Assembly: GCA_051453625.1 (NCBI GenBank)
Contig: JBOZIK010000001.1
Coordinates: 32,876,945-32,896,944, forward strand
From: Welwitschia mirabilis
Taxonomy: Eukaryota
Length of the DNA: 20,000 bases
Direction of reading: 5' to 3'
The notes beneath the pieces are model-generated. The model saw only the letters and a list, made by a program, of their open reading frames with translations, was not told where the DNA came from and did no database searches. Both the position numbers and the translations under genes were made by a program. Shown here piece by piece: positions 1 to 20,000 of the stretch. Each line of letters opens with the position of its first letter. The first letter of the stretch is position 1.

Positions 1-528
1 TCTATCCTATAGTTGTCAATTCTAGATTCTATTTTAACAATTTTACCATAGGCCTTGATTGCTAGGGATATTTTTAAATACTTCTTTTGATATCAATTAT
101 CAAGGTGTAATACTTTTTTTTGATAAATTATTTAAAAATTAAATTTTAATCATATTTAAATTGGTAGAATATGCCTTAAGAATAATAATATATATTAAAA
201 CATTATTGCATAATAAGCTCTTAGAAAAAAATCATCACATATAAAACTTAAATTAGCTTACCACATATAATTTCATATAGATCTTAATAAAGTTTATAAC
301 ATTAAAAAAACTCAATGATTTTTTTTTATGAAAAAAAGTATATATATTATACTAGAAAATGTACATTAAGAAGCAATAATGCCTAGGATTGACAAGAAAA
401 TTAAACTGTTCTGAAACAAAGAAAAGGTATTCCACTAACTATTCAGGAGAGAACTATGAAACAAAATAAAAATGGGAGTGAAACCACCCCCAAGGAAATA
501 GACTAAACATGGGGGACTACCTATTTAG

Positions 529-560
529 AAGAGTAAAAGCATAAAAGAGTAAAAGCATAA
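529..560. repeat. 16-bp perfect tandem duplication (AAGAGTAAAAGCATAA x2)
   Basis: Read directly at 529-544 and 545-560; lies in the T-rich putative 3' UTR of the minus-strand gene. Confidence 0.9.
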
Positions 561-653
561 AACTACTAATAGACTAGGGGCAAAAATTCCCATGCTACCA
601 TAAGCTACAAAAAAACTTAAGTTCGAAAAGGAAAAGACCTGGGAGGAGAAGAA

Positions 654-977
654 TTAGAGTCCTCTACAGAACGAGAACAGATTACCATGATTGTGATTGA
701 GTAAGAAATGACTCATATCATTAGAGAGTACCCAAATGCTTGATTTACCTCCTTGAATTCTTTAGCACCTACTGGATTTTTATCTGGATGCAGTCTGAGG
801 TCTTTCNNNNNNNNNNNNNNNNNNNNNNNNNNNNNNNNNNNNNNNNNNNNNNNNNNNNNNNNNNNNNNNNNNNNNNNNNNNNNNNNNNNNNNNNNNNNNN
901 NNNNNNNNNNNNNNNNNNNNNNNNNNNNNNNNNNNNNNNNNNNNNNNNNNNNNNNNNNNNATTTGACATAGAGTTTT
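654..977 (-). pseudogene. DnaJ/J-domain remnant spanning the 807-960 gap
   Basis: Before the gap: KTLCQI (977-961; cf. J-domain start 'xTLYxILG'). After the gap: KDLRLHPDKNPVGAKEFKEVNQAF (805-734; HPD at 790-782). After a 1-nt frameshift: VLSNDMSHFLLNHNHG (cf. AYEVLSD..R..YD.YG), stop at 656-654. Confidence 0.85.
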
Positions 978-1870
978 GAGCAGGTTGGAGCTTGTTACTG
1001 GCTGAGGAGAGGTCTGGTCATGCCTAACTTGCTCTTAAGATTTAGGAGAAGGATGTTTCTGAACTAGATTCTAAGTTGTCCCATGGGCAGGCTCTTGAAC
1101 TATCTCCTATTGGGCTAGGGGTAAAAACATCTCCTCTGAATAACCCAAGGGTAAAGTCACTCCCCTTGACTAGGGATGCCATGCATAGTAGTCCTCTCAG
1201 AATTAGGGGTCTCTCCCATAGTGGCTCTTCTTTTGAAGGCTCTCCTTGGGAAATTCTGATGTGCGCATTGTCAAGGAGGAGAGGGAGGGACCTCTCTTAA
1301 CCTAATTTCTTAGGCTACTCTCCACAGAGCCATAACTGAATCCAAGTTCCTTAGGGAATCTTTCCTGTGAAGAGATTGAATAAAAAAGAATTGGAAATTC
1401 ACTTCATTCCCTAGGTCAAGGGCTTTAAGAAAAGTGAAATGAATATCTGAAAGTTTAGAGCAATTCCTAGACTGAATGAAATGGTGGTCAACTAGCTCTA
1501 CACCTAATCCCCATGGGGACAGTAGTGCCTTTCTGCTAATGTGCCTGCTTGGCAATTTAGGAACCCCACTAGAGAAGAAGTAAAGTGCTTCACATTATCC
1601 TCGGCTTCTAAATGAAATATATTCTCCTTCTGTAGGGATCTCTAATAGCCTAGAGAGTGAATCTTCAGTGATCTCTATAGGGATTCTCCTAAACATAATG
1701 CACCTGCCTCTTTATCATTTGTAAAAGGGGGTAATATCAATCCCCTGGTCTCCCCTAAGCTTGTGCAGGAGGGGTTTCCATCCCATAGCTTGTACTTTTT
1801 CCCATAGGGTAGGGCAGCCTTCAAAGAGGCTACATTCGGAAGGCTCAATTGTAGGCATGGCTCTCATCAT
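654..1870 (-). pseudogene. Decayed ~400-codon gene: TE accessory-ORF-like N-terminal domain + S/P/Q-rich linker + C-terminal J (DnaJ) domain
   Basis: Manual minus-strand translation from ATG 1870 stays in one frame to 1310: MMRAMPTIEPSECSLFEGCPTLWEKVQAMGWKPLLHKLRGDQGIDITPFYK**RGRCIMFRRIPIEITEDSLSRLLEIPTEGEYISFRSRG*CEALYFFSSGVPKLPSRHISRKALLSPWGLGVELVDHHFIQSRNCSKLSDIHFTFLKALDLGNEVNFQFFFIQSLHRKDSLRNLDSVMALWRVA* (stops at 1717, 1714, 1597, 1312). After an inferred frameshift near 1160 comes a linker (..IVQEPAHGTT*NLVQKHPSPKS*EQVRHDQTSPQPVTSSNLL) leading into the J-domain. Joining these into a single ORF is inference. Confidence 0.6.
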
Positions 1871-1894
1871 GAGCCTAATTTGGAAATGATAGTG

Positions 1895-2209
1895 TTTGAT
1901 TCTCCTTACAGTATTTATAGAAAAATGTAAGGGGTTATTATTGAAAATCAGATTATTGGACCTTTTTGAAAAACTTTTGTTTTGGGTTTTGAAGNNNNNN
2001 NNNNNNNNNNNNNNNNNNNNNNNNNNNNNNNNNNNNNNNNNNNNNNNNNNNNNNNNNNNNNNNNNNNNNNNNNNNNNNNNNNNNNNNNNNNNNNTTTGAT
2101 TCTCCTTACAGTATTTATAGAAAAAGGTAAGGGGGTATTATTGAAAATCAGATTATTGGACCTTTTTGAAAAACTTTTGTTTTCAGGGCTCAGCCATCGG
2201 GTTTTGAAG
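1895..2209. repeat. Gap-flanking duplicate (1895-1994 vs 2095-2209)
   Basis: Near-identical sequence on both sides of a 100-N gap; the second copy has an extra 15 nt (CAGGGCTCAGCCATC) and a few substitutions. Confidence 0.9.
1912..1919 (-). promoter_or_regulatory. TATA box (TATAAATA) of the minus-strand J-domain fusion gene
   Basis: CTATAAATAC on the minus strand ~40 nt upstream of ATG 1870; preserved in the duplicate at 2112-2119. Confidence 0.55.
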
Positions 2210-2426
2210 CTATGAACACGCAGCAGTGGATTTTCGTTTCTACGCTCTTGTTTATGCACAGCAGATCACGTTTTCTGCGCTGCATTAATCTACGCGTAGC
2301 AGCGCTTTAGAAGTGCGTGGTGGTAGATTTTTTTCTCTATTGCATGCATAAAATAAAGATAGATCCTTACATGCACTGAGAGGTTTGGTCTTTAGCAAAG
2401 CCTTTGATAAGTCTTTTCAGAATATT
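2209..2426 (+). repeat. Second copy of the ~218-bp LINE 5' region (homologous to 3508-3725)
   Basis: GCTATGAACACGC...TTGCATGCATAAAATAAAGATAGATCCTT...GTCTTTTCAGAATATT aligns end to end with 3508-3725, with differences mainly C/T and G/A; truncated by the 2427-2526 gap. Confidence 0.9.
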
Positions 2427-3830
2427 NNNNNNNNNNNNNNNNNNNNNNNNNNNNNNNNNNNNNNNNNNNNNNNNNNNNNNNNNNNNNNNNNNNNNNNNNN
2501 NNNNNNNNNNNNNNNNNNNNNNNNNNGAAAAATTATCTTGAAAATCCCTTGTCATATAGAGTTTTTATAAGAATATTTCTTTGGATATTATGTTTATTTA
2601 TTTTTAATAAATTCCTTTTAATGAACATCTGATTTTCCCTCCTACCCTAAAGATTTAAACCTGATGTAAAGGGAGATAATTCAATACTCTTTAAGTTAAT
2701 TTAATGTTATAAAGTTATGAGTTCTCTTTAATTAATTTAATGTTATAAAATTTGTTTAGAAGAGAAGCCTTTTTTAATTTGATTTAATGTGATGATGTAA
2801 GTTTATGAGAGGAGGGAGAAATTTATTGCAAATGAATGGTTAGTGCTCACAGTGAGACTTAAACTGCCAAGCACTCCCTTTTCAATAACAGTAAATATGG
2901 AACAATTAAGGCATCATGGAGGAGAGAACCATCTTAAAGAGAGCCATTATTAAAGGAAGTTACAAATTCTTGAGATGCTCTTTTCAGAGATTAAATCTTT
3001 TATTAATAATATAGATAGTTTTTAATTAATGCTTTTGATAGAAGGGAATCATGAGGATTTAATCCCTTACTAACTGAGAAACATTTGTAAGTTTAAAAAA
3101 TAGAAATGTAGGCATTACATTTTGGTATCATAACATCTAGGTTAGTGATCCTATTTGGCATAGTCTCTGTGAAGATGTTATAAAAGCCTAGGTTATGATA
3201 ATGACTAAATAACTACAATAATAGCTAAGTAGTTTTTCATTTACCATATGGAATTTATAAGCCTATAATTAAAACGTTGAAAATATTTATATTTATAAAT
3301 TAAAAAAAACAAAAATAAAACTCCTTTATAGATTCTAGTGCAGTCTACTCATTCAATAAGGTCTTGGCCTGGTGATAAATATTCAAGGCATAACATTTTG
3401 TTTAGAAAACATTTTAAATTTCTTCCTACATAAGAGTCCACATGTTGTTATAAATGTTAAGGCGATGTATGAACCTTATTAAGATAGATAACTTGCATGC
3501 AATTAATGCTGTGAACACGCGATGGGAGGTTTTCATTTCTGTGCTCTTGTCTACACACGATGGATCACATTTTCTATGCTGCATTGGTTTATGTGCGGTG
3601 GAACTTTAGAAGTACATGGCTGTAGCTTTTGTTCTCCCTTGCATGCATAAAATAAAGATAGATCCTTGCATGCACTAAGAGGTCTGGTCTTTAGCAAAGC
3701 CTTTGGCAGGTCTTTTCAGAATATTTAGGGCATGCATGACATTTCTCCATAAATTCCATGCATGTCATGGCATCACCTCTCTTCTAGGAAAGTTATTCTA
3801 TTTTTCATATTCATCTCCCTTTTCTTTTGA

Positions 3831-6506
3831 ATGTCCTCACATATATCAGATTCATCTACATTAAATGCTTCTTCTAAAGAATGGAAAGTAGACATGGCTG
3901 AGATCCCTTATCATTCTGCATCATTAGACATGGAAAATGAGATAATTACAAAAGATGATTGTGTTATGGTAGATTTAGAATTTCCAAAATATATATTTAA
4001 CAAAACTATGTGCAAAGTTGAACAACTCTATGCTATCCACCTTTTCACTGGCAGGATTGCCTTCTTCTCTACTCTTAATAATTGGGTTTAGAAAAATTGA
4101 GTTACTAGAAACATCAAAGTTTCTATTGTTTCAAATATAACTAAAGGTTTATTTATCTTTGGCTTTGAATCTAAAGAAATAGCAGATTGGGTAAAGTAAC
4201 AACTAGTCTAGAATATTTCAAGGACTTATCTTATTCTATAGCCATGGTTCAAAGGGTTTGATCTTGAGAAAGTTGCTCAAATCACTATCCCTGTTTGGAT
4301 TGAATTCCCAAATCTTCTAGTTAATTTTCTTCATCATGTCGATATCTTGGCTACTAAAATTGGTAATGTTATTGGAATGGAGACCTTTTCAGGGTTATGT
4401 ACATGACCCATAAGAAGAATTTATGTTTCTGTTGATTTAAGTAAACTATTACCGAAGGTTATACATTTAACAGCAGATGGAATAGTTATTCTCCAAAAAG
4501 TTACTTATTTAACTTTACCAAATTGCTACTACTATTGCAAAGAACCTGACCATGTTAGGGCTCACTATCCTAAACTCCTAGCCAAGATGGAAGCTGACAG
4601 AGTTTTAGTAGAAAAATTAGCAAACAAACTCCATTAATCTAAGATTATGAAGGAAAATCTTAAAAATCCTCAAGAAGCAAATCAGGATAATTAGACTACT
4701 TAAGAATTAGTCGATCCTAAGGTCAACAAAGGTAATAAGAAAAACTTGGATCAAAGGAATATTGCTCATAAATCTGCAAAAGAGGTTCATTCTGCTAGTC
4801 AGGAAGATAATCAAGCAGATCCTCAATATTCTAAATNNNNNNNNNNNNNNNNNNNNNNNNNNNNNNNNNNNNNNNNNNNNNNNNNNNNNNNNNNNNNNNN
4901 NNNNNNNNNNNNNNNNNNNNNNNNNNNNNNNNNNNNTAGGAAAAATTTGTGTTTTTGTTGATTTAAATAAACCTTTACCAGAAGTTATACGTTTAATAGC
5001 AGATGGAATGGTTATTCTCTTAAAAGTTGCTTATTTAACTTTGCCAAATCGCTACTACTATTGCAAAGAACTTGATCATGTTAGGGCTCACTGTCCTAAA
5101 CTCCTAGCCAAGATGGAAGTTGCCAGAGTTTTAGTAGAAAAAGTAGCAAATGAACTTCATCAATCTAAGATTATGAAGGAAAATCTTAAAAATCCTTAAG
5201 AAGCAAATCAGGATAATCAGACTACTCAAGAATCAGTCGATCCCAAAGTCAACAAAGTTAATAAGAAAAACTCGAACAAAGGGGATATTGCTCGTAAATC
5301 TACAGAAGAGGTTCATACTACTAGTCAAGAAGATAATCAAGTGGCTCCCCAATATTCTAAATCTCTTAACAAGGAGAATGATGTAGAGGAAGGATGGCAA
5401 ATGGTTAATAGAAAATCGTATACTCATGTCACCCAGCCCAATCCCTTATTCAGCCCTTCAGGGGTTACAAATCATATGTTTAAANNNNNNNNNNNNNNNN
5501 NNNNNNNNNNNNNNNNNNNNNNNNNNNNNNNNNNNNNNNNNNNNNNNNNNNNNNNNNNNNNNNNNNNNNNNNNNNNNNNNNNNNNNNNNNNNNNNNNNNN
5601 NNNNNNNNNNNNNNNNNNNNNNNNNNNNNNNNNNNNNNNNNNNNNNNNNNNNNNNNNNNNNNNNNNNNNNNNNNNNNNNNNNNNNNNNNNNNNNNNNNNN
5701 NNNNNNNNNNNNNNNNNNNNNNNNNNNNNNNNNNNNNNNNNNNNNNNNNNNNNNNNNNNNNNNNNNNNNNNNNNNNNNNNNNNNNNNNNNNNNNNNNNNN
5801 NNNNNNNNNNNNNNNNNNNNNNNNNNNNNNNNNNNNNNNNNNNNNNNNNNNNNNNNNNNNNNNNNNNNNNNNNNNNNNNNNNNNNNNNNNNNNNNNNNNN
5901 NNNNNNNNNNNNNNNNNNNNNNNNNNNNNNNNNNNNNNNNNNNNNNNNNNNNNNNNNNNNNNNNNNNNNNNNNNNNNNNNNNNNNNNNNNNNNNNNNNNN
6001 NNNNNNNNNNNNNNNNNNNNNNNNNNNNNNNNNNNNNNNNNNNNNNNNNNNNNNNNNNNNNNNNNNNNNNNNNNNNNNNNNNNNNNNNNNNNNNNNNNNN
6101 NNNNNNNNNNNNNNNNNNNNNNNNNNNNNNNNNNNNNNNNNNNNNNNNNNNNNNNNNNNNNNNNNNNNNNNNNNNNNNNNNNNNNNNNNNNNNNNNNNNN
6201 NNNNNNNNNNNNNNNNNNNNNNNNNNNNNNNNNNNNNNNNNNNNNNNNNNNNNNNNNNNNNNNNNNNNNNNNNNNNNNNNNNNNNNNNNNNNNNNNNNNN
6301 NNNNNNNNNNNNNNNNNNNNNNNNNNNNNNNNNNNNNNNNNNNNNNCAACCCTTCAGGGATTACAAATCATATGTTTAAATCTGGTAGTGATGTCATAAA
6401 TCAATTCAGAAGACCTGACATATTAGTAGCCAATAGTTTCGAGTCTACAAATTTATGGCAGGTTGTTAAAGAGGGATTAAAGTCCTCTATTGACCTTTCC
6501 TCGTGA
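3831..6506 (+). pseudogene. LINE ORF1 (DUF4283-like + CCHC zinc knuckle), degenerate
   Basis: Reading through stops from ATG 3831 gives KGLFIFGFES, PWFKGFD, IPVWIEFPNL, KIGNVIG, RRIYVSVDLSK and TLPN(C/R)YYYCKE(P/L)DHVRAH(Y/C)P (decayed Cx2Cx4Hx4C), then a low-complexity tail with GWQMVNRK and NSFES, ending at TGA 6504-6506. Includes the duplicate 4411-4836/4937-5362 and an 862-N gap. Confidence 0.85.
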
Positions 6507-9500
6507 ATCTCATCTCTTGGAATGTTCAGGGACTCTTGGACCCCCGAAGAAAATTCATAGTCCAAGATTATATAGCAAAAAAGCATTTAGATATTGTCTT
6601 TCTTTAGGAAGTTAAATTTTAAGGTTTTTAGCTTTAAATTGCTTGTAATTGTATCTTTTTCAAAAGTTTCTTTTTCACTTTCAGCCACTCTAAAGGCAGT
6701 GGAGGACTAATTATTCTCCTTTATTAAAAGTTTAATAATCTTATTATTGATCATGGTAAAGATCCTGTAGGCAATTGTGTTTGGATTTATTCAAATTGGA
6801 ATAAATCTATTGTTGGCTTGGCCAATATTTATGCTTCTTGTAACATTTTAGATAGAAATGCTCTTTGGAATTGAATCTTTGATTCTCTCCCAAAAGCTTA
6901 TTGGATCATTTCAGGAGACTTTAAGATGATCGAGAACATCCATAATAAAAGAGGTGGTAATAAAGGTGGTCTGAACATTATGNNNNNNNNNNNNNNNNNN
7001 NNNNNNNNNNNNNNNNNNNNNNNNNNNNNNNNNNNNNNNNNNNNNNNNNNNNNNNNNNNNNNNNNNNNNNNNNNNNNNNNNNATAAAAGAGGTGGTAATA
7101 AAGGTGGTCTGAACATTATGGAGCTTGACAGTTGGTTGTCTCTCAAAAACAAATTTCAAGTACATGATGCTAATGATACCACCAAATCTACCTTAAGTAA
7201 AGGATGGGTTACTTGGTCCAATGCTAGATCAGGATCAACTTTTATCACTTCAAGACTTGATTAGATGCATTTTTTTTCAAATCCTCATATTAGTATCTCT
7301 CATCATATGAAGCTCCTAGGTTCAATAGATTTTACTCAGGTTTTATCTAACCATTTCCCCCATTTTTTGGTCCATCAAATCTCCAAATCTGCAGCATCTA
7401 AAAAAAGATCTCTTTATTTTTAATACTTCTTTTCTTCAGAATCATAACATGTGCTCTCTTCTCATGCACATTTGGAACCTTGTTCCTCTTGTGGGTAATA
7501 ATGGATGGATTGACTAGTGAAATAATAGTATTTTATGTACTCGATGGTTTTTTAAACAAGTAGAAAGACTTCTAGCAGCAAATATAACCTCTCATCAAAA
7601 AATCCTTATGGCTGAAGTAGAATTTTTTAGCTAAAAGTAAAATCTAGGCATGGTAGTAAATAGGACTTCGACTCTTTAAAAATCTGTAAATATAGTCTAA
7701 GGAAAGTTGAGCACTTAAGTTCAAGGAAGCTCTTCTTCATGCCCATTTATCTTGGCTAAGAATGAGAGACCAAGCCTCTTCATACTTTTTTAAATTCTTA
7801 AAAGGAAATTACTCTTCTCCTCATATAGAAGTTATTGATGATGGAACAGTTCTCCATACTTCCAGAGGATAAATTCTTTAAGTTTTTTATAATCAATGTT
7901 CTCAGGTCTTCTATGTTACCTTAGTTGATGACTCAACTATTGACACTTATCTTAATAATATTCAGCCTTTCAATCAAAATATTTTTGGAGAAGATTAGTG
8001 TCTCTCACTAGCTGAATTTCTCTATGTCCTTTGCCAGCTTAAAGATGGTAAAGCTCTAGGTTTAGATGGCCTTTCAACTGAATTCTTCTCCAAATTTTGG
8101 CATATTATTAGTTCAGATTCTTATAAAGTATATAAGGAAGCTTTAAGTAATAAGTTTCTTAGAACGTATCTCAATACAAGAATAGTTAAACTTCTTCCTA
8201 AATCAAGGGATTCTTATAATATCAATAATTAGAGACCTATTACTCTTTTGAATGTGATTTATAAAATTATCGCTAAGCTATGGATAATAGACTCAAGAAA
8301 TTTCTTTAGAATCTCATTAGTAAAGAGTAAATAGGTTTTGTTCAAAATAGGTATATCTTGGATAATGTTTTAACTACTGTCAAAGCTATGCATTGGGCCA
8401 CTAATTCCTCTTAGTAAGCTATTCTTTTAAAGCTTGATTTTGATAAAGCCTATGATAGACTGGATTGACATTTTCTCACCAGAATTATTCATCGTCATCA
8501 ACTAGGAAAAGTCTTTGAAAACCATGTTCATATGCTTCTTACCAATGCCACCTTATTTATCTGCATTAACAGTATCTTTTCTCATATTATCTCTCTTCAA
8601 TACTCAGTTCGACAGGGTTGTCCTTTAGCTCCTTATCTTTTTATCTTAGCAGCAGATGCTCTTGGATCTCTCACTAAATCTCATCAGTCTGTGGGTAATA
8701 TTGATGATATTTATCTTCCCAATGGCAACTCCGTTATGTACAGCCAATTTGCAGATGATACCTTCCTATTGATCAGGGAAACCGAATTTGATTTTTAGAC
8801 AGCTATTGATACTCTAAACATTTACTGTAAAGCTTTAGGTTCTCAAATTAATTGGAGTAAAACCGATGCAATCTGTTCTACATTTAGTGAAAGGCCCCCT
8901 TGATCTTACCATTTTAATATTCATTGGTTATTCCCTATTGATCACTTTAAACTTCTGGGAATTTCCATCACTTTTGTAGATACTTCTTCTAATATTTGAT
9001 AGATGGTTATCAATAAAGTTAAAGATAAAGTTCTTAAATGGTCTAGTAAACCCTTATCACTAACTAGAAGACTTACCGTTTGCATTCATATTCTAAGCAC
9101 TATTCCTATTTATTATGCTTGCTTCATGATTCCTTCTTCTTTAGCTTATGAATCTATGAATAGGATTATTTAAAGTTTTTTATAGAGAAATACCTTAAGT
9201 AATAAAGTCTTTTATTGAATGGCCTGGAGCACATGCTATCATTCCAAATCTTTAGGAGAATTAGGGATTCCTTCCTTAAAACATCAAGTATTTTATTAGC
9301 TTCTAAATAGATTATTCGATCCTTGGATGGTGATGAGGCTTAAAAAATATTATTTAGACATTATTTTTCTAATATCAATATGAGTCCTAATCATGTTCAG
9401 AAAAATCTTCATTGGAGCAATTCCATTTTCTTTGTTGGCACCTTTAAAAGTAAATGATCCTATGACTTTTAGTAAATTTTTAAGGCTTAGCACAAAATTA

Positions 9501-11010
9501 AACATTTNNNNNNNNNNNNNNNNNNNNNNNNNNNNNNNNNNNNNNNNNNNNNNNNNNNNNNNNNNNNNNNNNNNNNNNNNNNNNNNNNNNNNNNNNNNNN
9601 NNNNNNNGGAGCAATTCCATTTTCTTTGTTGGCACCTTTAAAAGTAAACGATCCTATGTCTTTCAGTAAATTTTTAAGGCTTAGCACCAAATTAAACATT
9701 TTCTTTAATGGAATATGGATAGGCTTAGCCACAATCAGCTAGCTACTCATTCTTCTTGGTGGTCTCTCACCTTTCAAATAGATAATAAATCCTTAGCTTC
9801 TCACTCTCCAGTTAGGTCTTATAGATTGGTTAAAGTAGGGCTTCTTCATTTGGATCAATTTGTTACCCTCTGAGAAAATTGCATCAAGATTAATTAGCCT
9901 CATCTCAAATCCAATTGAAAAGTTCACAAATNNNNNNNNNNNNNNNNNNNNNNNNNNNNNNNNNNNNNNNNNNNNNNNNNNNNNNNNNNNNNNNNNNNNN
10001 NNNNNNNNNNNNNNNNNNNNNNNNNNNNNNNAAATTTTTAAGGCTTGGTATAAAATTAAACATTTTCTTTTTTGGCATACGGACAATCTTAGCCATAATC
10101 AGCTAGTCACTCATTCTCCTTGGTGGTCTCCAACCTTTCAAATAGATGGTAATTCCTTAGCATCTTACTCTTCAGTCAGATCTCACAGATTGGTTAAAGT
10201 GGGGATTCTTCATTTAGATCAATTTGTTACTATTCGAGAAAACTACATCAAGATTAATTGGCCTTATCTCAAGTCCAAATGAAAAGTTTAAAAATTGGAT
10301 CTTCCTATTATCAAGTATATTGAAGAAGTAGTCTCTAAATATAATTGGCATTACAATAATACAAATTGATGGGATGATTGGTTTTGACTTGATGATAAAA
10401 AACTCACCCAACTATCCTTTTCTTCAGCTCAGACTTGGTTCTAAGATTTAATCAGTCAAATAAAGAAACTAAACTCTAGATGGCATCTCAACTAGTCGAA
10501 AAGTAAATGGAAACAATTCTTTAAAGAAGTTTGAAGGATAAAAGATCATCCCAAAACTAAACTTTTTTTTAATGTCTCATTCATCAGGGGATTCCTATGG
10601 CTCATTTTCTTCAACATTTTGGAATAACTCATCTGTTGTATCCTCTGTGTCAAGAAATAGAAATCGTTTAGCATACTTTTTAGGATTGTCGCAATGATAG
10701 ACAAGTCTAGGATTTGATCCAAAGTATTGACAGATTGAACACTTCTCTTTAGTATCCTAACTTCATTTTACTAAAAGACCCTAAAAACTCTTTCTCCAAG
10801 CATGATTGAAATATCTTAATTTTGGAACTTCTCCACTTTATTTGGAAGTATCGTTGTCAGGCTTGGTTCAATAAAGATTCTCTTCAAGACTACTCCACAG
10901 ACACTAAATATTCAATTCTTGCAGTAGTTCTTCTTCAAAATGAAGCTTTCAGCCTTTAAGAAGATTATAAAAACTTAAAGCTCCATTATTATAAGCTCCT
11001 ATAAGAAGCT
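6503..11010 (+). pseudogene. LINE ORF2 (APE-like endonuclease, reverse transcriptase, C-terminal zinc-binding motif), degenerate
   Basis: NLISWNVQGL (6506), DIVFL*EVK, NIYAS, WIISGDF, TWSN, SRLD, SNHFPI; RT motifs GKALGLDG, N*RPITLLNVIYKIIAK, LKLDFDKAYD, SVRQGCPLAPYLF (~8605), SQFADDTFL (~8742); remnant LYPLCQEIEIV*HTF*DC (~10635-10690). Many premature stops and frameshifts. Confidence 0.95.
9415..10290 (+). repeat. Overlapping diverged copies of one ORF2 segment separated by two 100-N gaps
   Basis: AAATTTTTAAGGCTT(A/G)G..AAATTAAACATTT occurs at ~9475, ~9668 and ~10032; ~9668-9931 aligns with ~10032-10295. Confidence 0.9.
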
Positions 11011-11169: not shown

Positions 11170-12720
11170 GTTTCTAATTCTTCAAATCTACCAAAATGTC
11201 AAGTGAATCCCATCCATTAATTATGTATTAAAGGCATTATAGATCTGATAGTACTTATTTATAATAGAGATTAATTCTTTACCCCAAGTGCAATGAGGGA
11301 ATAAATGCTATGCTGTTTCAAGATTCGATTGGCAGATGGGATAGTTTGCATCCACTTGAAATCCTCTCTTGAGCAACTTGTCTTTACTTAAGATTCTATG
11401 GTGGTTCTTTAACCAACAAAAGACTTTAATTTTTTTTGGAATTTAACCCTTCCAATACTACTTGTATGAGTTATCTTTCTCATATTTCTTTAAGAGACTC
11501 TATTTGGTTAAATCAAACTGATAAATGTTTAAATCTAAAAGTTGTTGTNNNNNNNNNNNNNNNNNNNNNNNNNNNNNNNNNNNNNNNNNNNNNNNNNNNN
11601 NNNNNNNNNNNNNNNNNNNNNNNNNNNNNNNNNNNNNNNNNNNNNNNNAGTTTGCATCCACTTGAAATCCTCTCTTGAGTAATTTGTCTTTAGTTAAGAT
11701 TCTATGGTGGTCCTTTAACCAATAAAATACTTTAATTTTTTTTTGGAATTTAACCCTTCCAATACTACTTGTATGAGTCATCTTTCCCATATTTCTTTAA
11801 GAGAATCTATTTGGTTAAATCAAACTGATAAATGTTTAAATCTAAAAGTTATTGTCAGCTTTACTGAGGATTTTTTTTATGTAGGACTCTTCATGATCAG
11901 TGCTTTAATTTTTGTATTTNNNNNNNNNNNNNNNCATGAGGGTTATCCTCCTTCATGTAGTTTTTTTAAAATCCTATGAGATCTAGTAAGGATGTAATCG
12001 TTTGGTTTCTAGATCCCCTATCCCCCAGATTCTCTTGGGTGGGTAATAGTCTCCCATTTACAGAGATGAATTTCGTGATGATCTTTTCCTCCTGACCATA
12101 TAAACTCCTTTAAGATCCTGTTGATTTTTTGAATAAAATTTCTCAAGGGGGATTAAACAAGATTTTGTGAGGATGATCTTAGCTTTGGATGAGAGAAAGT
12201 TGTTCTGCCAAGAGTTTCACTACCTTTGAATGGACTCAAGGATGTAATTCTAGATAAGGTTCTTATGCCAGTTTCGAAGGGGAATGCCCAAGTATATATC
12301 CTGAAGATCTCCTAATTTTGCACTCAAGATTTGGGTAATTTCATCCCCTATGGTACGTTTTTTGCCCAAAGTATGGATTTTTGACTTATTCTAGTTGGTT
12401 TGAAGACCTTAGCCATTGCAAAAAGATTCATAGAATTTTTGATTACTTTTTCTTGCTGACCTGAAGCCCTAGTCATAATGATGGTATCATCTACATAGTG
12501 ATTGTTGATAAAGGTTTGACCTCCAATTCTGATTTCTGTAACTCCATTTCTTCTTTAAAAAACCTATAAAATATTCACCACAAAGAGAAAAAGGTATGCG
12601 GAGAGGGGGTCCCCTTGTCTTAACCCTCTACCTAATGAAAAGAAATTTGATTTATGATTATTGATCTCCATGCTGAATTCAGTTGAAACCTGCATGTCTA
12701 ATCAAAGATTAATGATATCT
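11170..12720 (-). mobile_element. Fragment of a second, different L1-type LINE (3' part of ORF2: RT core to zf-RVT)
   Basis: Minus strand: GRGLRQGDPLSAYLF (~12633-12590), NNHYVDDTII (~12500), YLGIP (~12295), HEGG (~11950), KIKVFYWLKDHHRILTKDKLLKRGF and PICQSNLETA*HLFPHC (zf-RVT-like). Contains the gap-flanking duplicate ~11343-11548/11649-11855. Confidence 0.88.
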
Positions 12721-16307: not shown

Positions 16308-16788
16308 TATAAGTATAAGCATAAATCACTTTAAGTCAAAAGGATTTTCAAATCTATGATTTTCACATACTTGAATTTGATGAAGAATAAGTCATACTAA
16401 TCAATTTATGTAGTACTCTGATAATTGGTTTTTATCCCTTTTTCCCTTTTCTTTTCAAACACACTCTATTCTAATGAAAATTTTGTGTGTACATTATAGG
16501 CAAAGAGAGGCCCAATTATATATGCCTTTTAGCTTAAATATAGTGAATCCATCAAGCTGTAAGGTGGATGGATGAGATTAGCCCTTAATAACTTCCTAAT
16601 TATTATAATTATTTATTAATATAAATATAGGTAACTGACTATTAGTGGGAAGTTTAATGATCAAATGTTATCCCTTAATAATTATCAAGATAAATATAGG
16701 TAACTAACTATTAGTGGAAAGTTTAATGGTCAATCATTATCCCTTAATTTTAGGCCACAATTAAGTTACCAAATGGTAACTTCTAACA
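16308..16788 (-). repeat. 3' LTR of the Ikeros-like copia element (distal end uncertain)
   Basis: Starts TGTTAG after the PPT; TATATAA at ~16523-16517 on minus. The distal end is tentatively CTTATA (a mutated ..CA end) at 16308. Confidence 0.6.
16621..16748. repeat. Imperfect 69-bp tandem repeat (x~1.9) in LTR U3
   Basis: ATAAATATAGGTAACT(G/A)ACTATTAGTGG(G/A)AAGTTTAATG...TTATCCCTTAAT starts at 16621 and 16690. Confidence 0.9.
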
Positions 16789-17169: not shown

Positions 17170-20000
17170 AATAACCAAGATCCATTCTTATGCATGTTCT
17201 TTAAATTTCTTTGATTGTGATCCTTTAAGATCTGTTCTAATATGTTTAATAGACACTCTTTATTTCTGAACTTTCTCCTTAATGGAAAAATGCTTTAATT
17301 CGATATGGTTGGCACCTCTTGAGTATTTATACATTTTGGAGAAAAACATTGCTACAGAATTATCACAATAAATTTTTAGTGGCTTGGTAATGGTGTTGAA
17401 AACCCCAAGTCCTAAAATAAAGTTCCATAGCCATAATGCATGTACTATAGCTTCAAATCATGCCATAATGAGCCAATGACATATTACTTAGCATTTTTCT
17501 ATTATATTGCTCCTTCTTCAATAAGAAAAAAATAACCAAAAGTAGACTTTCTACTGTCAATGGACCTAGCAAAATCTAAATTTGAGTGTCCAATCACTTT
17601 CAAGTGACTAGATATCGTATACATGAGCATGTCATTCTTGGTTCCTTAAAGATATCTTAAAACTTTCTTTACAGCTTTCCAATGATCCATTCTTAGATTA
17701 CTTTGATACGTGCCTAGCATTTTGACTGCAAGTCTGATATCTAGTGTTATACAAGTTTGCACATATATAATACTTCTAATAACAAAAGCATAAGGAAATA
17801 ATTCCATTCATTTCCTTTCTAATTCATTGTTTGGACATTACATGAGACTATATTTATCCCCTTTCTGAATTGGAACAATTCCAGTAGAACAGTTTTGCAT
17901 ATTACATCTCTCAAGAATTCTTTCAATATATGCTTTCTGAGATAATCCCAATAGTTCTTGTGATCTATCATGGAATATTTTAATTCCTATCACATGAGAT
18001 GCCTTACCTATATCTTTGATTTTAAAATTCTTTGAGAGATAGTCCTTCATCTCATACAATATTCTCAAGTCATTAGTAGTAGGCAAGATATCATCAACAT
18101 ACAGAACTCAAAATAAAAATTTTCTCCCACTAATCTTTCGATATATGTAATGATCAACAAGATTTTCTTCAAAACTGAAAGAGGTAATGGTATCATTGAA
18201 CTTAATATACCATTGCCTGGAAGCTTGTTTTAGTTCATATATTGATTTCTTGAGTTTACACACCATATGACCTTTTCTTTCAATTGAGAAACCTTAAAGT
18301 TAATCCATATAAACTTCCTATTCAAGGTTAGCATTCAAAAAGGCTATTTGTATATCCATCTAGTATAACTCCAAGTAATAATGAGGCACCAATACCATAA
18401 TGATACGTAAAGGGTCTTTCTTTGAGATGGATGAAAATGTCTTTTTAAATCAATGCCATCCTTCTGAGTATATCCTTTAGCAACAAGTCTAGCTTTATAT
18501 TATTTTATATTACCATTTGAATCAAGCTTGGTCTTAAAGATTCACTTATAGCTATCTCATTTAGAACCTTCTAGCAATTCAATGATATCCTAGACTTTGT
18601 TCTCATACATAGATTTTAACTCTTCTTTCATAGCATTAATTCATTTCTCAGAATGAGCACATTCTATAACTATGAAATAATATCTTTATTAATTTGAATG
18701 TTAAGATCTTATTCTAGCAAATATGTTTCATAATTACTAGGAATAGCTGATTTTCGTATTCTTTGAGATCTTCTCAAAGGTACTTCCTATGNNNNNNNNN
18801 NNNNNNNNNNNNNNNNNNNNNNNNNNNNNNNNNNNNNNNNNNNNNNNNNNNNNNNNNNNNNNNNNNNNNNNNNNNNNNNNNNNNNNNNNNNGAGATGGAT
18901 GAAAATGTCTTTTTAAATCAATGCCATCCTTCCGAGTATATCCTTTAGCAACAAGTCTAGCTTTATATTATTTTATATTTCCATTTGAATCGAGCTTGGT
19001 CTTAAAGATCCACTTATAGCTAACTCATTTAGAATCTTCTAGCAATTCAATGATATCCTAGACTTTGTTCTCATACATAGATTTTAACTCTTCTTTCATA
19101 GCATCAATTCATTTCTCAGAATGAGCACATTCTATAACTCATGAAAATGAAATAGGATCTTTATTAATTCGAATCTTAAGATCTTATTTTAACAAATATG
19201 TTTCATAATTACTAGGAATAGCTGATTTTTGTATTCTTTGAGATCTTCTCAAAGGTACTTCCTATGGCTTGTTTGCATTAGATCATTGTGAGTTATTTCC
19301 TTCATGGAGTATTTAATAAATTATATATTGTTTAGCATTAATATGATGTTCTTTAACAACTAGAGCAACATTTTGAACAATAACGGATGTAGAACACTTA
19401 TAGGTAAAGGAATAATTACCTTAACTTTTTTTATGTCCACATTCTGTTGATATATACTCCTATTAACTTTACCATTTTCAAGGAATTTTGTATTACTAGT
19501 TTCACTATCCTTGGACTATGGTTAGGACAATAAAATATATGCCCTTTAGATTTCTTTAGGTAACCACTAATTGTTTGAAAATCTAGTTTCTTTTTGTATG
19601 AATCATAGACTCTTACTTTTGCTAGGCAATTCCAAACATGTAGGTGCCTCAGACTAGGTTTTCTATCTGTTCATAACTTAAAAGTAGTTCTTGGAACTAC
19701 CTTACTAGGAACCCTATTTATCAGATACATTGCTCTTTAATGCATACATCCACAAAGATTTGGATAATGATGAATCACTCATCATACTCCTAACCATATC
19801 AATCACTATTTTGTTGCATCTTTCGATCACACCATTTTGTTGAGATGTGTATGACATAGTGTATTGTGCACATATGCCATGTATTTCAAAAAGTTTTACA
19901 AATGGACCTAGACATTATCCTATTATCGCCACCTCTATTAGACCTTATGATTTTCACTTTCTTGTCTAATTATCATTCTACTTCATTAATATAAATCTTA
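17170..20000 (-). pseudogene. copia pol: integrase, RT and RNase H, with stops and frameshifts
   Basis: KVKIIRSNRGG, QQNGVIER, DMVRSMMS, NRVPSK (integrase, ~19960-19700); KARLVAKGYTQKDGID, KKSIYELKQASRQWY, YVDD at 18101-18090 (RT); IYCDNS, ANHIELKH (RNase H, ~17375-17290). Duplicate 18424-18791/18892-19266 around a 100-N gap. Confidence 0.95.

Follow-up and report, generated by a model that had tools for sequence, protein, structure and literature searches.

The J-domain is a universal handle for borrowing Hsp70. Some viruses encode one themselves, and in plants J-proteins are active at chromatin that is methylated and rich in transposons. Polyomavirus T antigens bring a J-domain with them to use host Hsp70, and DNAJ1/2 act with SUVH1/3 on plant chromatin. 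Among mobile DNAs, the 'half-LINE' elements that retain only ORF1 of a long interspersed nuclear element (LINE), for example mammalian HAL1, are non-autonomous poly(A) retroposons. Here we describe a 20,000-nucleotide (nt), AT-rich stretch of the Welwitschia mirabilis genome (contig JBOZIK010000001.1; hereafter the window), where the minus strand at about 319-2208 holds the decayed remains of a repeated unit in which a predicted J-domain fragment lies downstream of an orphan coding region (the N-part).

Two groups of described plant systems are among the closest to this locus. SILENZIO is a class-C J-protein acting with MBD5/6 (PMC8616336, section 2.11). Separately, long terminal repeat (LTR) retrotransposons of plants may carry extra open reading frames (ORFs), those meant here being PMD (PF10536) in Ogre, Transposase_28 (PF04195) in Retand, ATHILA ORF-1 (PF03078) and Transposase_32 (PF20167). 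The frequencies of such ORFs are treated in PMC6317226, Transposase_32 has been placed within a sunflower Athila ORF (PMC11728184), and PMD is reported as restricted to angiosperms (PMC8616336). The consulted sections of these three articles describe no J-domain on a PMD, Transposase_28, ATHILA or Transposase_32 ORF, and the supplementary tables of PMC6317226 could list a DnaJ match. Full-text literature searches returned no title or abstract describing a transposable element with its own J-domain.

The window unit resembles LINE-dependent retrocopies and poly(A) retroposons in its A-run end, varied flanks, lack of reverse transcriptase (RT) or endonuclease, intron-less look and many copies. 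It differs from them in carrying a predicted J-domain together with an orphan domain, in the approximately 340 nt upstream of the ATG, and in that no target-site duplication was found; neither a parent gene nor a partner LINE has been identified for it. As in SILENZIO and DNAJ1/2, an HPD-containing J-domain would be joined to an unrelated targeting part, with recruitment of Hsp70 as the expected action. However, SILENZIO and DNAJ1/2 are single-copy host genes, whereas the window unit belongs to a retroposed repeat with a high copy number. No link was seen between the unit and the methyl-DNA readers that partner SILENZIO (MBD5/6) and DNAJ1/2 (SUVH1/3). Polyomavirus T antigens would offer the parallel of a selfish element with a J-domain of its own, which for the window unit is proposed from sequence; by contrast, they belong to an animal virus, their J-domain is N-terminal, and there is no sequence kinship beyond the J-domain fold. 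Like the extra ORFs of LTR retrotransposons, the N-part is a plant-restricted, fast-evolving ORF in a repeat. Unlike them, the N-part has no hidden Markov model (HMM) match and no surrounding LTR element, and its unit has a poly(A) end; in contrast to the angiosperm-only PMD (PMC8616336) the sole relative of the N-part comes from a gnetophyte.

We tentatively read ~319-2208 (minus strand) as a dead copy of a retroposed unit, non-autonomous and ending in poly(A), that at one time coded for a class-C J-protein. Its repeated nature was established with contigs of two public DNA run sets carrying the same species label (X1 and X3), aligned to positions 1-3000. At a likeness of at least 90%, 3836 (X1) and 3376 (X3) contigs aligned, mostly in the 90-95% band; the summed contig depth is, by the tool's own warning, no copy number. 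The depth along the locus was as follows.

1-300: flank, depth 3.6-9.8
301-700: tail, depth 204-2880
701-800: bin holding the predicted J-domain (J bin), depth 5185 (X1) / 5863 (X3)
1001-1300: linker bins, depth 18-127
1301-1900: N-part, depth 75-992
2101-2200: leader, depth 345/733, dropping to 2.9/0 in 2201-2300
2201-2500: flank, depth 0-15.7

The stretch 301-2200 is multi-copy (depth 18-5863) and the flanks at 1-300 and 2201-2500 are single-copy, so that depth differs by two to three orders of magnitude. Between 9 and 32 different contigs cover individual positions of the N-part and position 1099. Within the window itself, no second copy of the J-bearing unit was found. Read along the window, the unit comprises the following features.

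319-331, minus strand: A-run closing the repeated unit at its 3' end (A9 plus TA in the window)
332-653, minus strand: non-coding, 3'-UTR-like tail, multi-copy, without an open frame (depth 204-2880 in X1, 526-1055 in X3)
654-761, minus strand: frame ..WVLSNDMSHF.., reached by a frame slip and running to a stop at 654; putative J-domain end, helix III/IV region
713-806, minus strand: predicted J-domain fragment KDLRLHPDKNPVGAKEFKEVNQAF, comprising the end of helix II, the HPD loop and helix III (depth 5185/5863 in bin 701-800)
807-960: sized scaffold gap of 154 N, within or directly before the predicted J-domain
961-1034, minus strand: open 24-codon frame EQVRHDQTSPQPVTSSNLLKTLCQ, 0 stops, running into the gap
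1035-1309, minus strand: linker region with an 84-codon open frame at 1042-1296; two frame changes needed; multi-copy
1870-1310, minus strand: N-terminal pseudo-ORF (N-part), 187 codons with four stops, of no known family
1598-1867, minus strand: stretch homologous to the 91-amino-acid (aa) Welwitschia transcript ORF P0002 (tblastn E 9.7e-40)
1871-2208, minus strand: leader at the 5' side of the unit, containing a TATA-like motif at 1911-1920, repeated at 2111-2120, and a 100-N gap at 1995-2094

The 3' end bears on the type of element. At 332, 18 (X1) and 17 (X3) contigs read approximately 12 T on the plus strand and then continue in letters at chance agreement (0.58 overall). Retroposition through non-LTR machinery typically leaves copies that share an A-run and then continue into unrelated flanks, and the element is a retroposed, non-LTR-type unit, not the extra ORF of an LTR retrotransposon. 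The preliminary description of this locus, made from its letters alone, had proposed a transposon-encoded accessory protein resembling the extra ORFs of plant retrotransposons; the repeated, mobile-type character is borne out by the depth (18-5863 against 0-15.7 in the flanks), whereas an LTR setting is contradicted by the A-run end and unrelated flanks, with no gag, pol or LTR adjoining. No RT or endonuclease domain lies in 319-2208, and the RVT_1 remnant (8469-8795) is found 6 kb away on the opposite strand.

At the 5' side, the limit of the unit lies at ~2208, where depth falls and an older, unrelated repeat ends at 2209. The gap in the leader (1995-2094) has flanks that are 98% duplicates of each other. 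The TATA-like motif TATAAATA said to precede the reading frame is indeed present at 1911-1920, but it is not above chance: it occurs 7 times where 4.4 occurrences would be expected, and 7 are reached in 32 of 200 shuffles. The older repeat consists of low-depth direct copies at 2209-2426 and 3508-3725 (79% identical), both ending in ..GTGTTCA(T/C)AGC; the copy at 2209-2426 directly adjoins the J-bearing unit on its 5' side.

The J-domain signature stands up to comparison with known families. KDLRLHPDKNPVGAKEFKEVNQAF (805-734) matches PF00226 at profile positions 26-50 of 63 (E 6.2e-4, 20.3 bits); the gathering score of 27.8 bits is not reached, and a full score is out of reach for the window copy because the gap and the slip leave just 30 readable residues. 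All 17 PDB sequence matches at E<=1 are J-domains. The best of them, Caenorhabditis elegans dnj-12 (2och_A, E 2.2e-5) and human DNAJA1, have the same short loop length after HPD. The HPD tripeptide itself, encoded at 790-782 on the minus strand, is aligned with the HPD of 2och_A, 2lo1_A and 2m6y_A. Of the expected helices, III is present and II is partly in the window, whereas I falls in the 154-N gap and the IV region comes only past the slip. VLSND is reached only through this one-base frame slip, which is due to a base missing behind 732 in the window and still present in 9 (X1) and 8 (X3) contigs.

Loose ends of contigs, translated by hand, extend the domain further. At 790, 21 + 13 contigs diverge and read ..SSYKKKALRL ahead of HPD; at 806, nine diverge and read ..PQAIKSNYRK ahead of KDLRLHPD; and at 733, 14 + 4 diverge and read ..EVLSDEMGYF past NQAF. 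Judged by these translations, other copies continue as J-domain helices II and III, with sequences as expected, and the J-domain can be considered real.

The N-part occupies 1870-1310, and the preliminary description was accurate in its length, strand and number of stops (TGA and TAA at 1717-1712, TAA at 1597-1595 and TAA at 1312-1310). The other five frames over the same interval contain 7 to 22 stops each. In 20,000 shuffles of the interval, the mean was 11.3 stops and the probability of four or fewer was P = 0.009; the 94 open codons at 1313-1594 have P = 0.0033. The motifs read earlier from its translation are all present, as EPSEC, GWKPLL, IEITEDSLSRLLEIPTEGE, ISRKALLSPW and HFTFLKALDLGNEVNFQFFFIQSL.

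The N-part derives from coding sequence, because P0002, an ORF of a Welwitschia mirabilis Trinity transcript in EukProt, matches its residues 2-87 (E 3.7e-32, 70% identity, HMMER scan). Yet it is an orphan. P0002, the single member of its own cluster, is the sole N-part relative in an exhaustive HMMER scan of 1,835,955,588 representative proteins, and three word-index protein searches found no relative besides it. The window stop at 1595-1597 (codon 88 counted from 1858) and the stop of P0002 (residue 91) occupy adjacent codons.

The proposed kinship of the N-part to Transposase_32, Transposase_28 or PMD was not recovered. Pfam returned no family at E<=10 for P0002 or for the read-through protein of the window copy (P0001), and none at E<=1 for the two open N-part pieces. 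The comparisons suggested in the preliminary description, with the profile HMMs of PF20167, PF04195 and PF10536, as well as that with PF03078, gave no match to the N-part at E<=10, a result through which very remote kinship could escape, given that HMMER filters discard most matches above E ~0.1. With P0002 as query, the top ESM Atlas clusters are unnamed, ~90 aa long and, where taxa are known, plant-derived (scores 0.94, 0.94 and 0.93), and no Pfam family is common in any of the best 30 clusters. Among named clusters, the nearest are one in which 49% of the members carry PF20167 (0.89) and one of ATHILA ORF-1 (0.88), both below the 0.9 line. The neighbor at 0.89 is no more than a lead towards Transposase_32; we presume, again as a lead only, that the motif pattern in both halves of the N-part is Transposase_32-like. 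An AlphaFold2 model built from the two-sequence alignment was unusable (pLDDT 31.7).

Between these two parts lies a region that the preliminary description called a linker rich in S, P and Q. This stretch does lie between the N-part and KTLCQ, but 1309-1035 is not one frame: there are five stops in the frame of the N-part, and KTLCQ is reached only after two frame changes. The minus-strand frame at 1042-1300 has no Pfam match. As a separate observation, 1042-1300 is GC-richer (0.46) and open on both strands for 84 codons. At position 1099, the linker is covered by 9 (X1) and 21 (X3) contigs (depth 82/240). KTLCQ, at the gap edge with SSNLL.. before it, could start helix I. Unlike those of the 100-N gaps, the flanks of the 154-N gap (807-960) are without duplication, and the gap appears to be sized, that is, set from read pairs. 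One 351-nt contig (X1 record 3, X3 record 13) covers 964-1245 and extends 69 nt into the gap, and nine contigs enter it from the J side. KTLCQ and KDLRL are in different frames across the 154 N; as the true gap length is uncertain, the phase cannot be judged.

Several observations favor a single protein. The N-part and the J-domain lie on the same strand and in the expected order within one repeated unit, and outside the peak at 733-790 the depths are of one order (420/880 at 713, 82/240 at 1099 and 264/455 at 1446). The ranking of depth, with the J core above the N-part and the N-part above the linker, would fit a domain-linker-domain protein under selection. In the ten codons ahead of HPD, 10 of 30 bases differ between the majority copies and the window subfamily, seven of the differences being synonymous and three replacing (hand count; a tiny sample, taken from consensus letters with agreement 0.7-0.84). 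This synonymous-rich difference points to selection on the protein. A LINE-type RT remnant (RVT_1, E 3.2e-6) in the same window also counts in favor of the retroposed-unit reading.

We envisage, conditionally, a unit of ~1.6-1.9 kb that would have spread via an RNA intermediate, either as a non-autonomous poly(A)-ended element or as a much-amplified retrocopy, with LINE enzymes supplied in trans and LINE machinery having mobilized it. From 5' to 3', it would consist of a leader, an orphan domain of ~185 codons, ~100 poorly conserved codons, the HPD-bearing J-domain, the ~320-nt tail and the A-run. A single ORF of ~370-400 codons may once have spanned N-part, linker and J-domain. The encoded protein would be a class-C (type III) J-protein whose C-terminal J-domain switches on the Hsp70 ATPase through HPD, while the N-part would select the client, perhaps the element's own RNA or ribonucleoprotein (RNP), or chromatin. 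Its function would thus be the recruitment of Hsp70 to whatever the N-part binds.

A number of results weigh against this reading. No contig among those listed bridges the N-part and the J-domain, between which the scaffold gap lies. The depth varies widely, from 18-127 in the linker and 75-992 in the N-part to 5185/5863 in the J bin, so that most J-bearing copies may lack the N-part; contig-derived depth, moreover, cannot serve as copy number. Identity between the window and the majority copies is at least 90% over 679-790 but only ~67% directly upstream of 790, and this sharp drop points to a mosaic. P0002 is annotated as complete at 91 aa, with its stop one codon past window codon 88, and the true ORF might accordingly be short; the adjacency of the two stops may be a coincidence, a genuine ORF end or a recoding site. 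The Atlas does not recognize 1313-1594, the latter half of the N-part, as protein-like (recognition 1094, best score 0.78). The repeated unit takes in approximately 340 nt 5' of the ATG, a stretch not required in a simple processed copy of an mRNA. The comparison of 2170-2280 with 270-345 revealed no target-site duplication, nothing beyond 6-mers being shared, although this is weak evidence because the copy is old and its exact 5' end uncertain. Lastly, the assembly is poor in the window, as judged by the duplicated sequence at the flanks of seven of its eight 100-N gaps.

One alternative is that the copies are processed pseudogenes of a lineage-specific host gene encoding an orphan domain followed by a J-domain, the mRNA of which was copied repeatedly by LINE enzymes; the protein would then be a host co-chaperone, not a transposon product. 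The A-run end, the unrelated flanks and the lack of visible introns would be expected of such copies, the only relative of the N-part is an ORF from an expressed transcript, the J-domain most resembles the class-A type of cellular proteins (dnj-12, DNAJA1), and the synonymous-rich difference between subfamilies, as counted by hand, fits a selected host gene. However, neither the 1.84 billion representative proteins nor the three word-index searches contain a full-length protein with the N-part, and the ORF of the P0002 transcript is itself cut short. The depth also exceeds that of the flanks by a factor of hundreds to a thousand, whereas retrocopies of plant genes are usually far fewer, and the repeated unit includes the ~340 nt upstream of the ATG. 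We consider this origin unlikely.

We also regard as improbable a second alternative, in which two repeats, one with the N-part and one with the J-domain plus tail, are neighbors by chance or were joined by the scaffolder and were never fused. The 154 N between the two parts, the poor assembly with its duplicate-flanked 100-N gaps (7 of 8), a J-bin depth 5 to 50 times that of the N-part and linker bins, the abrupt loss of identity to the majority copies at 790 and the two frame changes in the linker are all compatible with such a junction. Against it, strand and order agree, KTLCQ at the gap edge could open helix I, and depths outside 733-790 are of one order (713, 1099 and 1446). Furthermore, contigs enter the gap from both sides (the 351-nt linker contig by 69 nt, and nine from the J side), and the gap was probably sized from read pairs.

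A third alternative is the accessory ORF of an LTR retrotransposon (Transposase_32, Transposase_28 or PMD kin) fused to a J-domain. It draws on the nearest named Atlas clusters (PF20167 on 49% of members, 0.89; ATHILA ORF-1, 0.88), on a motif pattern presumed similar, as a lead only, and on the occurrence of such ORFs in Ogre, Retand and Athila (PMC6317226, PMC11728184, in the sections consulted). It has very little chance of being correct, with no Pfam match at E<=10, an A-run closing the unit ahead of unrelated flanks, no LTR pair, gag or pol adjoining (the nearby direct repeat 2209-2426/3508-3725, 79%, lies wholly upstream), and LINE-type (8469, other strand) and copia-type (17841) remnants as the nearest RTs.

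The retroposed-unit reading can be taken one step further, to a proposal that we advance as speculative and doubtful: a gymnosperm retroposon family of gnetophyte type would encode its own Hsp70 co-chaperone. In this protein, a domain that binds clients and is remotely related to plant retrotransposon accessory proteins would be joined to a C-terminal J-domain, and purifying selection would have maintained the protein during amplification of the family to hundreds or thousands of copies. If true, no earlier case of a J-domain on a transposable element would be known, and recruitment of host Hsp70 by the element, for RNP assembly or against chromatin silencing, would be suggested. If one protein indeed contained both parts, plant retroelements would have a novel means of using or fending off host machinery, and the orphan N-part would make a good candidate module for binding clients or RNA. 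If the parts are merely adjacent, or if retro-amplification of a host gene gave rise to the family, the locus is ordinary debris of a large, repeat-rich gymnosperm genome.

The window copy is dead, as was first supposed, because its read-through contains 9 stops in 273 codons (the N-part frame continued to 1040) in addition to frame slips. Each of the eight variant places listed in 1000-1900 carries A or T in the window copy but G or C in most contigs, and the stops at codons 48, 49 and 88 align to R, W and Q in P0002. The copy has decayed mainly through G/C-to-A/T transitions; a bias from G/C to A/T is the pattern of methylated-repeat deamination. When raw reads of two RNA runs were compared with 1-3000, 5 and 3 reads matched, all of them partially and mostly in the J bin, with none at a likeness of at least 99%. 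The window copy is thus not seen as expressed in these two runs, and those reads yield nothing firm for the family.

The wider window contains 12 N-runs, of which eight are exactly 100 N long. At seven of these eight, the flanks are duplicated (84-98% identical), the sequence before the gap recurring directly past it; the gap at 2427-2526 is the one without a duplicate at its flanks. The duplicate-flanked gaps look like unmerged overlaps or scaffolder joins of diverged copies, and apparent tandem repeats in the window are therefore probably artefacts. Besides these gaps, remnants of two RTs were recognized.

1995-2094, 4837-4936, 6983-7082, 9508-9607, 9932-10031, 11549-11648 and 18792-18891: duplicate-flanked 100-N gaps
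8469-8795, plus strand: LINE-type RT remnant, RVT_1 (E 3.2e-6, 27.4 bits against a cut-off of 29.6)
17841-18107, minus strand: copia-type RT fragment, RVT_2 (E 4.2e-15)

Remnants of a LINE-type element extend over 4400-10300 on the plus strand, interrupted by several gaps, and the ORF at 4939-5196 (plus strand) includes a Cys/His knuckle-like piece with a weak zf-C2H2_10 match (E 0.003). Rfam gave no matches in the window. Past the single-copy stretch that follows the unit, 2501-3000 belongs to a separate, very high-copy repeat (contig depth 563-8879) without a long ORF, and at 16610-16747 a 69-nt unit is present in two tandem copies that are 87% identical.

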